This document shows positions 31,047-34,243 of a stretch of 34,243 nucleotides of DNA, one piece after another; positions within the stretch are counted from its first letter, which is position 1; the number at the start of each line of letters is the position of its first letter. This stretch comes from a virus (taxonomy: Duplodnaviria > Heunggongvirae > Uroviricota > Caudoviricetes): the IMG/VR virus record IMGVR_UViG_2859810971_000006, positions 1 to 34,243 of that record, one strand, 5' to 3'. Below the pieces are notes generated by a model. The model saw nothing but the letters and a program-made list of their open reading frames with translations, was not told the origin of the DNA and did no database searches. The position numbers and the translations under genes were made by a program.

Positions 31047-31550
31047 TTACTGATAGTGTTTTATGTTCAGATAATGCCCGATGACCTTGTCATGCAGCTC
31101 CACCGATTTTGAGAACGACAGTGACTTCCGTCCCAGCCTTGCCAGATGTTGTCTCAGATTCAGATTATGTCGCTCAATGCGCTGAGTGTAACGCTTGCTG
31201 ATAACGTGCAGCTTTCCCTTCAGGCGTGATTCATACAGCGGCCAGCCATCCGTCATCCATACCACGACCTCAAAGGCCGACAGCAGGCTCAGAAGACGCT
31301 CCAGTGTGGCCAGAGTGCGTTCACCGAAGACGTGCGCCACAACCGTCCTCCGTATCCTGTCATACGCGTAAAACAGCCAGCGCTGACGTGATTTAGCACC
31401 GACGTAGCCCCAATGTTCGTCCATTTCAGCGCAGACAATCACATCACTGCCCGGTTGTATGCGCGAGGTTACCGACTGCGGCCTGAGTTTTTTAAGTGAC
31501 GTAAAACCGTGTTGAGGCCAACGCCCATAATGCGTGCACTGGCGCGACAT
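31047..31550 (-). CDS. insB: IS1 InsB
   Basis: 167 aa; one residue different from copy 1. Confidence 0.95.
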
Positions 31551-31744
31551 CCGACGCCATTCATGGCCATATCAATGATTTTCTGGTGCGTACCGGGCTG
31601 AGAGGCGGTGTAAGTGAACTGTAGTTGCCATGTTTTACGGCAATGAGAGCAGAGATAGCGCTGATGTCCGGCAGTGCTTTTGCCGTTACGCACCACGCCT
31701 TCAGTAGCGGAGCAGGAAGGACATCTGATGGAAATGGAAGCCAC
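31469..31744 (-). CDS. insA: IS1 InsA
   Basis: Identical 91-aa product to copy 1. Confidence 0.95.
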
Positions 31745-31799
31745 GCAAGCACCTTAAAATCACCATCATACACTAAATCAGTAAGTTGGCAGCATTACC

Positions 31800-31807
31800 G
31801 GTAATCA
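31800..31807. repeat. Target-site duplication (right) of IS1 copy 2
   Basis: ggtaatca immediately outside the right IS1 end. Confidence 0.7.
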
Positions 31808-31876
31808 AACATGGTTTTCAACTCCGAACTTATCGCAAAATCGAACTCAGCGTCTTATTGCGAAAATAGACGTCTA

Positions 31877-32080
31877 TTAAGCAGACAAAGCATCAACAGT
31901 CAGAGCAGCCAGGTTAATCATTACCTTTTCACGTTTTTTGTCTTTACGAAGACGATGACGAGGTAGTCGGCCATCAGCCAACATGTCGTTAATCGTATCA
32001 ATAGAAAGGCCAGTCAGTTCGCTATAACGTTCGATTGTGACATGTGGTGTATTCAGAGTAATTGAAATGTTAGGTGTCAT
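31877..32080 (-). CDS. Apl/Cox-like small helix-turn-helix protein (first lytic-operon gene; excisionase/switch repressor candidate)
   Basis: 67 aa; helix-turn-helix-like ERYSELTGLSIDTINDMLADGRLP and a basic tail; divergent from cI and directly upstream of the cII-like gene, as apl is in 186. Confidence 0.5.
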   Translation of the reverse strand: MTPNISITLNTPHVTIERYSELTGLSIDTINDMLADGRLPRHRLRKDKKREKVMINLAALTVDALSA

Positions 32081-32225
32081 AAGGCAACATTCCTTCTAGA
32101 TATGGCTTGTGGCGAGCCGTTGTTTGTCGTGATTAGTAGTAAAGGCTCCAAAAGAACACTTCTGGTTCAACTTTAAGATCGCTTTTGGAATCTGTCAACG
32201 AATTTTGGATTTCTTTGGAGGACTT

Positions 32226-32795
32226 GTGGATTTCAATAGCGGCGGTAAGAAAGCCATAGAACGTTTAGTTGAAGCATATGAGTTCGGTACTCGTCAGGCT
32301 CTCTGTGATCATTTAGGTGTTTCTAAGAGCACCATGGCAACGCGCTATATGCGTGATATTTTTCCAGCAGATTGGGTAATCCAGTGCGCCCTTGAAACGG
32401 GCACCTCGCTTAATTGGCTAACAACAGGGCATGGTTCAAAGCAAGCATCAGCAAATACAAATACTATAGAAGTAGAAAAATATTTATTGTCTGATGGAGC
32501 ATTGCAGAAAGACGGTTTTTATATTTTTGATAAGGGATTTCTACCCTCTACGTTTAAAAAACCTTTTGTCATCACAGATAACAATTCTGAATTTATTTGT
32601 GATAAAGAATTTGATGATATACGTGATGGTAAATGGGTAATAAGTATTGATGGCGAAATAACGATCCGTGACATTACTCGTTTACCCGGTGGAAGAATCT
32701 TCGTCGAGGGTGGAAACAGAGCCTTCGAATGCAAGATAGAAGACATTGAAATAATTGGTAAAATTATAAGTTTAACAGTCAAGTATGTTAAATAG
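32226..32795 (+). CDS. cI: 186-type CI immunity repressor
   Basis: About 189 aa from the GTG at 32226 (GGAGGA Shine-Dalgarno), or 196 aa from the TTG at 32205; N-terminal helix-turn-helix (QALCDHLGVSKSTMATRYM) plus a C-terminal domain; AT-rich; lies between the lytic genes and int. Confidence 0.65.
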   Translation: MDFNSGGKKAIERLVEAYEFGTRQALCDHLGVSKSTMATRYMRDIFPADWVIQCALETGTSLNWLTTGHGSKQASANTNTIEVEKYLLSDGALQKDGFYIFDKGFLPSTFKKPFVITDNNSEFICDKEFDDIRDGKWVISIDGEITIRDITRLPGGRIFVEGGNRAFECKIEDIEIIGKIISLTVKYVK

Positions 32796-32810
32796 TACCG
32801 GGAGGAAACT

Positions 32811-33002
32811 ATGCTTGGTAAGGTATTTTTTGTGGTTTTGTCATGTTCTTTGTTATTAAACCCACTAACTACCTATGCTAGAAATTATCCCTGCTCAGGG
32901 AAAAAGGGAGGTGTTTCTCACTGTACCTCAGATGGCAAATTCGTTTGCAATGATGGAACTATTAGTAAATCCAAAAAAATCTGTACTAAAAACTCACGAT
33001 AA
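32811..33002 (+). CDS. Small secreted cysteine-rich protein (lysogeny-operon cargo candidate)
   Basis: 63 aa; GGGAGG Shine-Dalgarno; signal-peptide-like N-terminus ([19 protein letters not shown]); mature part of about 40 aa with 4 Cys; AT-rich. Confidence 0.5.
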
Positions 33003-33190
33003 CTTTTGTTTTTATATCTGCGTCTAAAATAAAAATGAGCCGCAGGTTAACCGCAAAAGTTACATGCTCACATAGCAAAAAGAATAGCCAACTTCATTAT
33101 GGCTTCAGTGAGATGTATGGTCGTAGGATTTCATACATTGACACTGGTTATACATACAGTAAAAATGCTCTCTACTGGAGGGCATTTTTT

Positions 33191-34243
33191 ATGGCAGTAC
33201 GAAAACTCACCACAGGGAAATGGCTTTGCGAATGTTACCCCGCCGGACGAAGTGGGCGTCGTGTGCGTAAACAATTCGCCACCAAAGGAGAAGCTCTGGC
33301 TTTTGAGCGTCACACGATGGAAGAAACCGAATCAAAGCCCTGGCTGGGCGAATCAGTGGATCGTCGAACCCTGAAAGACGTGGTTGAGCTATGGTTCAAA
33401 CTACATGGTAAATCTCTGACTGCTGGACAGCATGTCTATGACAAATTGCTGCTGATGGTTGACGCTCTAGGCAATCCTCTTGCAACCGATCTCACCTCTA
33501 AAATGTTTGCCCACTATCGAGATAAACGCCTGACAGGCGAGATCTACTTCAGCGAGAAATGGAAGAAAGGAGCAAGCCCGGTCACCATTAACCTGGAGCA
33601 AAGCTATCTAAGTAGTGTTTTTAGCGAACTATCCCGTCTGGGCGAATGGTCGTATCCGAACCCACTGGAGAACATGCGAAAATTCACCATCGCAGAAAAA
33701 GAGATGGCATGGCTTACCCATGAGCAGATTGTTGAATTGCTGGCTGATTGCAAACGTCAGGACCCAATTCTGGCACTGGTAGTTAAGATATGCTTAAGCA
33801 CAGGCGCACGCTGGCGTGAAGCCGTAAATCTTACCCGCTCACAGGTGACCAAATACCGAATTACCTTTGTCAGAACGAAGGGGAAGAAAAACAGAAGCAT
33901 CCCTATCAGTAAAGAGCTTTACGAAGAGATCATGGCGCTTGATGGGTTCAATTTCTTCACAGACTGCTATTTTCAATTTTTATCCGTGATGGAAAAAACG
34001 TCTATCGTGCTCCCTCGCGGTCAACTCACACACGTTCTGCGCCATACGTTTGCGGCGCACTTCATGATGTCGGGTGGAAACATTCTGGCCTTACAAAAAA
34101 TTCTCGGACACCACGATATAAAAATGACTATGCGTTACGCACATCTGGCACCGGATCATCTGGAAACGGCGCTCCGTTTCAATCCTCTGGCAACGCTGCC
34201 AAGTGGCGACAAAGTGGCGGCAGCGGTTGGCATTACCCCGTAA
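33191..34243 (+). CDS. int: Tyrosine integrase (P2/186 Int family)
   Basis: 350 aa from the ATG at 33191 (MAVRKLTTGKW..., GGAGGG Shine-Dalgarno); C-terminal catalytic motifs (...LSTGARWREA..., HVLRHTFAAHFMMSGGNILALQKILGHHDIKMTMRYAHL); stop at the last three bases of the window. Confidence 0.9.
   Translation: MAVRKLTTGKWLCECYPAGRSGRRVRKQFATKGEALAFERHTMEETESKPWLGESVDRRTLKDVVELWFKLHGKSLTAGQHVYDKLLLMVDALGNPLATDLTSKMFAHYRDKRLTGEIYFSEKWKKGASPVTINLEQSYLSSVFSELSRLGEWSYPNPLENMRKFTIAEKEMAWLTHEQIVELLADCKRQDPILALVVKICLSTGARWREAVNLTRSQVTKYRITFVRTKGKKNRSIPISKELYEEIMALDGFNFFTDCYFQFLSVMEKTSIVLPRGQLTHVLRHTFAAHFMMSGGNILALQKILGHHDIKMTMRYAHLAPDHLETALRFNPLATLPSGDKVAAAVGITP

Follow-up and report, generated by a model that had tools for sequence, protein, structure and literature searches.

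A YdcA-family gene between the cI repressor and the integrase of a 186-like prophage: a predicted exported four-cysteine peptide and its possible roles in the lysogen

What does a small open reading frame (ORF) lodged between the immunity repressor and the integrase of a temperate phage encode, and what might it offer to the lysogen? The question is raised by positions 32811-33002 of the viral record IMGVR_UViG_2859810971_000006, of which the whole stretch analyzed (34,243 nucleotides, hereafter the window) is a 186-like prophage with the local order cII (-), apl/cox (-), cI (+), ydcA (+), int (+). From our analysis, the ORF is almost certainly a genuine YdcA-family gene, coding for a Sec-like leader of 23 residues and a basic (+7) mini-domain of 40 residues with four cysteines, and carried as accessory cargo 15 bp after cI, in a slot that is empty in phages 186 and P2. 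A first-pass annotation, made from the letters alone, had described a small secreted cysteine-rich protein and had offered it as a lysogenic-conversion, exclusion or toxin-like candidate; its description was right and its functional guess reasonable but unproven; it had recognized neither the family nor the K-12 paralogue, and it had overlooked counterparts in other P2-like phages. The gene is already catalogued as YdcA family and is not a new discovery. The interest rests instead on three computational links which make a testable problem of it, namely its placement behind the repressor in diverged P2-like elements, its homology to Legionella Dis2, and the fusions of its domain to nucleases. 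The elements of the gene are as follows.

32811-33002, + strand: YdcA-family gene, 63 codons plus TAA (ORF list, NF007463, PHROG 6000, RefSeq WP_000900883.1)
32800-32805, + strand: GGGAGG, read from the sequence as the Shine-Dalgarno site of the ydcA-like gene; it follows the cI stop by 5 nt and precedes the ATG by as many
32811-32879, + strand: signal peptide of Sec type, as predicted for residues 1-23 with a cleavage site behind TYA (invariant -1 Ala; in the leader the non-synonymous rate, dN, about equals the synonymous rate, dS)
32880-32999, + strand: mature 40-residue peptide with four invariant cysteines, net charge +7, isoelectric point 9.7, about 4.3 kDa

The cI gene ends with TAG at 32793-32795, and the ATG of ydcA stands at 32811. 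The leader is made of K4, a hydrophobic run from V5 to L16, and NPLTTYA, in which positions -3 and -1 are the small residues T and A; the mature region (RNYPC...KNSR) follows, with its cysteines at C28, C38, C46, and C58. The support for a signal peptide is comparative, drawn from the alignment of homologues and the position at which the domain starts. Across 26 aligned homologues the -1 Ala is invariant, the leaders are otherwise unrelated in sequence, and the core after the cleavage site is almost unchanged (invariant columns A23, P27, C28, S29, K32, G33, G34, C38, F44, C46, D48, G49, S52, S54, K55, and C58), and the conserved domain begins at a median of residue 25 in 149 representatives of the family. 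Behind its signal peptide the prophage protein carries the four-cysteine core P-C-S-x3-G-G-x3-C-x4-5-F-x-C-x-D-G-x2-S-x-S-K-x2-C, which was intact in 84 of the 84 loci examined. A lipoprotein reading was considered for VLSC at residues 9-12, which loosely fits the lipobox [LVI][ASTVI][GAS]C and would leave a leader of 11 residues; it seems the less likely reading, as the lipobox is not convincing (at this site homologues show I, V or F at -1, or have no cysteine) and the Ala-x cleavage site is invariant. The GC content of the ORF is 35.4%, as compared to 48.9% in int and 52.1% in the window, and the low-GC block extends beyond ydcA, back into the C-terminal half of cI and on into the ydcA-int spacer, both of which are equally AT-rich. 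The strong Shine-Dalgarno sequence, the signal-peptide-like N-terminus, the 40-residue mature part with four cysteines, and the AT-richness noted in the first-pass annotation are all upheld by these readings, the signal peptide as a prediction.

The profile and structure searches which that annotation had proposed as a check were run, and the profiles recovered the family that it had overlooked. The protein matches NCBIfam NF007463 (YdcA family) with 115.8 bits against a cutoff of 93 (protein 5-63, model 1-58 of 58) and PHROG 6000 over its full length at E = 1.9e-34 (protein 3-59, model 1-56 of 56), and the Pfam family PF27300 (YdcA) is a precomputed match in 58 of 64 homologues, among them the 98% identical cluster representative (P0001). 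With a Pfam-A release older than PF27300, no model was assigned to the ORF and only a sub-threshold GULLO2-like match (E = 0.075) was returned. The NCBIfam scan of 32811-32999 also gave a sub-threshold match to the Legionella lpg1681 family (lpg1681_fam; E = 0.11), which is not significant, although this second family of small Legionella proteins might have the motif in common with YdcA. DUF3761, whose motif CxDGxxSxS...CSxHGGV may represent the YdcA core in circularly permuted form, was not reported by Pfam at E <= 1. The chromosomal paralogue of E. coli K-12, ydcA (b1419), encodes a protein of 57% identity and the same architecture, with a signal peptide and the core PCSGxKGG..C..F.C.DG..S.SKK.C; the window copy differs in being prophage-borne 3' of cI and in being more basic. 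As the equivalog model for K-12 YdcA (NF007462) gives 68.5 bits against a cutoff of 118, the prophage protein is, on profile scores, placed in a paralogous branch (NF007463) and is not the K-12 orthologue.

As prophage cargo the gene is very common. Of 5426 complete E. coli genomes, 631 (about 11.6%, or roughly one in nine) carry a 335-bp segment bearing ydcA, among them BL21, HS, and an O25b:H4 strain, and this cI type was present in 638 of the same genomes. At the same locus of E. coli N2250, the Prokaryotic Genome Annotation Pipeline (PGAP) reports a "YdcA family protein" (WP_000900883.1) between "phage repressor protein CI" and "phage integrase". Beyond E. coli, a profile search of 1.84 billion representatives returned 462 YdcA clusters at E <= 1e-3, and pattern scans gave members in the genomes of 229 species, drawn from the gamma-, beta-, and alpha-proteobacteria, and in 504 IMG/VR contig stretches; 58 plasmids carry the family as well. 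When the deposited phage genomes (INPHARED isolates) were searched with megablast, only the int part matched and the cI-ydcA module was absent. Published accounts describe the function of the family as unknown or poorly characterized (PMC7642389, PMC13541209), and our literature search found nothing for the family WP accessions, PRK10040 or "YdcA-like". Other genes called "ydcA" in the literature (a rhomboid gene of B. subtilis, a methylase gene on plasmid pS88, and a gene of a gonococcal island) are unrelated.

The substitutions between alleles are those of a coding gene. The ydcA of the window differs from the BL21 allele at 12 nucleotides, of which 11 are synonymous and one is a conservative replacement (R24K); the core differs from that of a second E. 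coli allele (P0012 type) by 21 synonymous differences in 22 sites and three non-synonymous ones in 83 sites. In the comparison with L007 the core has a dN of 0.037, and its synonymous sites are saturated. Over 79 distinct loci, the core has a median omega (dN/dS) of 0.19 and the 20 codons ahead of it one of 0.87, which is the pattern expected of a cleaved leader and a constrained mature peptide, and all 80 IMG/VR copies examined were intact. Judged from these patterns, the mature core is under strong purifying selection and the signal peptide drifts. An ORF which is short, AT-rich, and upstream of int could also be a chance reading frame or a non-coding leader for int, the latter being the outcome that the first-pass annotation had named as fatal to its reading. 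However, with a family score above the cutoff, synonymous to non-synonymous differences of 11:1 and 21:3, homologues in three proteobacterial classes, and an int-proximal conserved sequence that begins only at about 33133, 3' of the ORF, we regard this as practically ruled out.

Is the gene, then, a regular occupant of this position? In phage 186 cI abuts int, and in phage P2 a gap of 115 bp without any gene separates C from int; the earlier statement that P2 has no counterpart at this position holds for P2 itself but not for other P2-like phages. A repressor followed on the same strand by ydcA was seen in E. coli prophages with two different cI alleles or immunity types, in Yersinia prophages whose CI and Int are 36% and 48% identical to those of the window, and in the Haemophilus phages HP2 and S2, where an unannotated ydcA ORF of 60 codons has its ATG overlapping the cI stop. 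About ten P2-like prophages of beta- and gamma-proteobacteria, which encode Ogr, GpU, GpD, and a repressor of HTH_3+Peptidase_S24 type, have ydcA as the last gene of the operon on the repressor side, where it faces gpD. Repressor-ydcA modules account for about 17 of the 80 species loci retrieved, and by sequence ydcA has been placed independently behind unrelated repressor types. This recurrent arrangement is the best argument for ydcA being made in lysogens and mattering there. An intact cox-like/cI/ydcA/int block also lies in a degraded P2-like remnant of BL21(DE3) (L183, chromosome 873412-877513), where truncation has affected the replication endonuclease and cII.

In 186-like relatives, the cI-int slot holds other cargo on the same strand. 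PADLOC assigned PD-Lambda-1 to the slot of vB_EcoM-813R9 and, in another E. coli prophage, a PDC-S20 KAP nucleoside triphosphatase (NTPase) directly after a second ydcA allele, the two genes lying side by side; the slot of Klebsiella phage 4LV2017 codes for a 349-residue protein of unknown kind. In related prophages at the same rcdA site (the N2250 prophage adjoins rcdA), the defense cargo of the slot was located at L018 4085-5761 and L007 6198-7529. These defense genes share with ydcA the insertion point and the strand between cI and int, although they encode large cytoplasmic proteins of NTPase type and YdcA is an exported-type peptide of 4 kDa. In a survey of 2026, the interval between int and the primase counts among the minor defense hotspots of P2, with 8% of the systems (PMC13586616). 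An accessory or conversion role in the lysogen is plausible, and it is strengthened because ydcA recurs behind repressors and defense genes share its slot in relatives. No terminator-like site was seen on the + strand between cI and ydcA. The first-pass annotation had placed the ORF in a cI-int transcription unit; this may be too simple, as int is preceded by a structured spacer of 189 nt and by a sigma70-like promoter of its own.

The domain architectures of the family give a second line of evidence. In our survey of the 149 best family representatives, the YdcA domain occurs alone or in two or three tandem copies, and behind a signal peptide it is fused to SNase (85 bits), to Endonuclease_NS in three proteins (up to 114 bits), and to the phospholipase D-type nuclease domain PLDc_2 (69 bits), with a sub-threshold match to HNH; other fusions join it to DUF4124, to one VasL domain of the type VI secretion system (T6SS), and to a second small cysteine motif (representatives of the nuclease, tandem, and other fusions are P0117, P0181, P0208, P0206, P0190, and P0222). 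Fusion to nucleases of three unrelated folds suggests that the domain supplies substrate binding or localization; catalysis or specific inhibition is unlikely. The charge of the domain has a family median of +3, with 71% of members at +3 or more. On two very small plasmids of Acinetobacter and Psychrobacter, a ydcA homologue stands in a three-gene operon beside a MobA/MobL relaxase (L185 640-816 on pGFJ6, 4066 bp, and L186 2932-3105 on pA40P1, 5371 bp), and Pfam gave no informative domains for its neighbors beyond a small TraD and a lipoprotein signal.

A third line comes from the predicted fold. The AlphaFold2 (AF2) model of the mature core, built on a 54-sequence alignment, has a mean predicted confidence (pLDDT) of 83.8, and in a Foldseek search of the Protein Data Bank (PDB) a single chain stood out, AN of 7MUC/7MUD, the outer-membrane-cap subunit Dis2 (Lpg0823) of the Legionella Dot/Icm system. 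The core superposes on a Dis2 lobe with a probability of 0.96-0.97, a TM-score of 0.60-0.67, a root-mean-square deviation (rmsd) of 1.6 A for 36 aligned columns, and 42% identity; the runner-up reaches a probability of 0.04, and the full-length model gives the same top match. The family profile finds the Dis2 chain at E = 1.4e-4 and, with the signal peptide removed, matches both lobes at E = 3e-3, while hhalign pairs it with a Dis2-like metagenomic protein at 86% probability, a protein that itself bears a faint precomputed PF27300 match. The sequence of this Dis2-like protein holds the YdcA motif twice. Each Dis2 lobe holds the motif C-x3-GG[VI]-x7-8-G-x-[LF]V-C-N-[DN]-G-x-x-S, and the prophage protein shares this motif and the lobe fold. 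Published descriptions call Dis2 Legionella-specific and report no structure in the PDB that resembles it significantly; from our comparisons (chain AN of 7MUC/7MUD and L181 4908-5243), it appears to consist of two YdcA-like domains in tandem. On the sequence profiles and the model, we have moderate to good confidence that the relationship is homology at the level of the domain and not orthology. Dis2 is exported, disulfide-stapled, and extracytoplasmic, and prophage YdcA would be so too; Dis2, however, is an acidic protein of two lobes and five disulfides and a stoichiometric part of a type IV secretion system (T4SS), whereas prophage YdcA is a single free basic domain with four cysteines in a P2-like prophage window without T4SS genes.

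How might such a peptide serve the lysogen? We consider it probable that ydcA is co-transcribed with cI from a pL-type transcript in lysogens, and that the pre-protein is translated and exported and its four cysteines are oxidized to two disulfides in the periplasm. There, close to the outer membrane, the free domain would bind a polyanion or a partner in an envelope complex, the best candidate being DNA in transit, and such binding would interfere with the entry of foreign DNA, that is, superinfection or entry exclusion from which the lysogen and the prophage would both benefit. We rank this exclusion reading first because of the slot, the nuclease fusions, the charge, and the associations with phages, plasmids, and T4SS, and we put it forward as a tentative possibility only. 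Several resident phages make small extracytoplasmic exclusion proteins, which are encoded in the lysogeny module or are active in the periplasm (Ltp of S. thermophilus TP-J34, lactococcal Sie2009, Sim of P1, and Sp of T4); like prophage ydcA, the genes of Ltp and Sie2009 are flanked by int and the repressor gene. In the Pfam, NCBIfam, PHROG, and PADLOC scans prophage YdcA showed no sequence or family similarity to these proteins, of which Ltp is a lipoprotein.

A number of observations weigh against exclusion. The exclusion-protein families Sim, Sp, Ltp, Sie2009, and TrbK were not found in the Pfam, NCBIfam, and PHROG scans at E <= 1, and none of the families of PADLOC-DB 2.0 matches the ydcA ORF of the window. 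Many members of the YdcA family are chromosomal without any phage linkage, and in Moraxella and Acinetobacter phages ydcA lies among structural genes and not beside the repressor. The nuclease fusions could equally mean localization or anchoring rather than DNA binding, and the sequence link to Dis2 is weak when taken alone, given the E-value of the core-only profile. Dis2 uses the fold, close to the outer membrane, to contact other proteins, namely DotK, DotC, and DotD (PMC12716638), and the lobes of the Dis2-like protein are acidic. The sole phenotype reported for an E. coli ydcA, sensitivity to 3-hydroxypropionate (3-HP), points to envelope or acid stress and not to exclusion (PMC7642389).

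On a rival reading, the prophage gene is a host-fitness (lysogenic-conversion) factor which, like the chromosomal YdcA, would help the lysogen to tolerate organic-acid or low-pH stress and would have no part in conflicts between phages. Deletion of ydcA in E. coli W gives sensitivity to 300 mM 3-HP, and acid induction through YdcI is cited with it (PMC7642389); the close resemblance to K-12 YdcA and the frequency of non-phage chromosomal copies fit such a role as well. Yet E. coli already has a ydcA, so that a second copy has little evident advantage, the 3-HP phenotype comes from one report that gives no mechanism, and neither the nuclease fusions nor the mob-adjacent plasmid copies are explained by it; we hold the proposal to be rather unlikely. 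Alternatively, the peptide may be a protein-binding staple which docks on outer-membrane lipoprotein complexes and modifies an envelope machine (a receptor, secretin, T4SS or pilus) and which does not bind DNA. The superposition on Dis2 and the profile and hhalign matches, the Dis2 contacts named above, and the VasL fusion all speak for this. The paired lobes of the Dis2-like protein are nevertheless acidic where YdcA is single and strongly basic, the window has no T4SS, and deletion of dis2 has only subtle effects, and we take the staple to be an unlikely role for the prophage copy.

It may also be asked whether the gene does anything for the prophage at all. As the C-terminal half of cI, ydcA, and the spacer form one AT-rich block, as the cI type and ydcA occur together in nearly equal numbers of genomes, and as the pair is kept in the degraded BL21 remnant, ydcA could be a hitch-hiker with little or no function of its own, retained by linkage to an immunity cassette whose parts recombine together. 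Purifying selection on the core, seen between close alleles as well as anciently diverged ones, the intactness of every IMG/VR copy examined, and the independent placement behind unrelated repressor types make this improbable. A secreted toxin or bacteriocin-like cationic peptide aimed at competitors, as the first-pass annotation had allowed, is far less probable still. The product is indeed small, cationic, and disulfide-rich, and a YdcA-family gene is among the loci associated with antimicrobial activity in P. protegens (PMC13541209); but nothing in the window supports a toxin, as no adjacent immunity gene, lysis or release module or export system beyond Sec was seen, the Pfam, NCBIfam, and PHROG scans gave no similarity to bacteriocin families, and the chromosomal distribution of the family is housekeeping-like.

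If exclusion is nevertheless what the peptide provides, by blocking the entry of DNA, it would be a small and easily synthesized exclusion factor, and a role would be assigned to a family that spans alpha-, beta-, and gamma-proteobacteria. Conceivably, the YdcA domain at large is a widespread but unrecognized module, outside the cytoplasm, for the passage of DNA through the Gram-negative envelope, with the fold of a Dis2 lobe, serving as the targeting or DNA-binding head of secreted nucleases, and the free peptide of prophages and plasmids is a new periplasmic exclusion factor which stops incoming phage or plasmid DNA between the membranes; we offer this broader proposal as a speculation that is more likely wrong than right.

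The genes around ydcA in the window are these.

32205-32795, + strand: cI immunity repressor of 186/HP1 type (Pfam Phage_CI_repr 2.7e-30, Phage_CI_C 3.6e-29; RefSeq 'phage repressor protein CI')
33191-34243, + strand: P2-type tyrosine integrase (Pfam Int_N 3.2e-32, Phage_integrase 7.2e-22; PHROG 1); the window ends at the int stop
31877-32080, - strand: Apl/Cox-like excisionase and repressor, divergent from cI (PHROG 575, 1e-29)
31047-31744, - strand: insA- and insB-like ORFs between cII and apl (ORF translations; comparison with the N2250 locus)

PGAP places the start of cI at the position equivalent to 32226. The ORF translations of 31047-31744 are ones that we take to be InsA and InsB of IS1, and relatives have a gap of about 65 bp at this cII-apl/cox site. 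Because the IS1-like ORFs interrupt the early lytic operon, the prophage may not be inducible.

The spacer of 189 nt between ydcA and int contains the following predicted elements.

33000-33062, + strand: long imperfect hairpin starting from the ydcA stop codon (predicted fold), with no T-run and hence not a canonical terminator
33138-33166, + strand: sigma70-like promoter TTGACA-17-AAAAAT upstream of int (sequence pattern), conserved in relatives
33161-33189, + strand: hairpin AAAAATGCTCTC-TAC-TGGAGGGCATTTTT (predicted fold only), which buries the int Shine-Dalgarno sequence (GGAGGG, 33177-33182) and ends in a T-run

The predicted RNA of this spacer is unusually structured, with a minimum free energy of -61.8 against -39.9 +/- 4.1 (z = -5.3; 32990-33200). 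A selected RNA structure at 33000-33062 was found to be unsupported, the sequence being conserved but without covariation and three of the pairs being broken in BL21, and an Rfam scan of 31700-34243 returned nothing meaningful. Within the promoter spacer lies a LexA-box-like palindrome, ACTGGTTATACATACAGT (CTG-N10-CAG, 33143-33160). Promoter and palindrome are both conserved upstream of int in BL21, in relatives that bear PDC-S20 or PD-Lambda-1, and in Yersinia prophages, and both are absent from 186 and HP2, where int abuts the upstream gene. The pattern suggests that int has its own SOS-controlled promoter in these prophages. LexA-box-like patterns occur three times in the window against 0.49 expected, and a second, A/T-rich site, ACTGTTTATATTTACAGT (26321-26338, + strand), could presumably mark a tum-like SOS-inducible promoter, as in the biology of 186.
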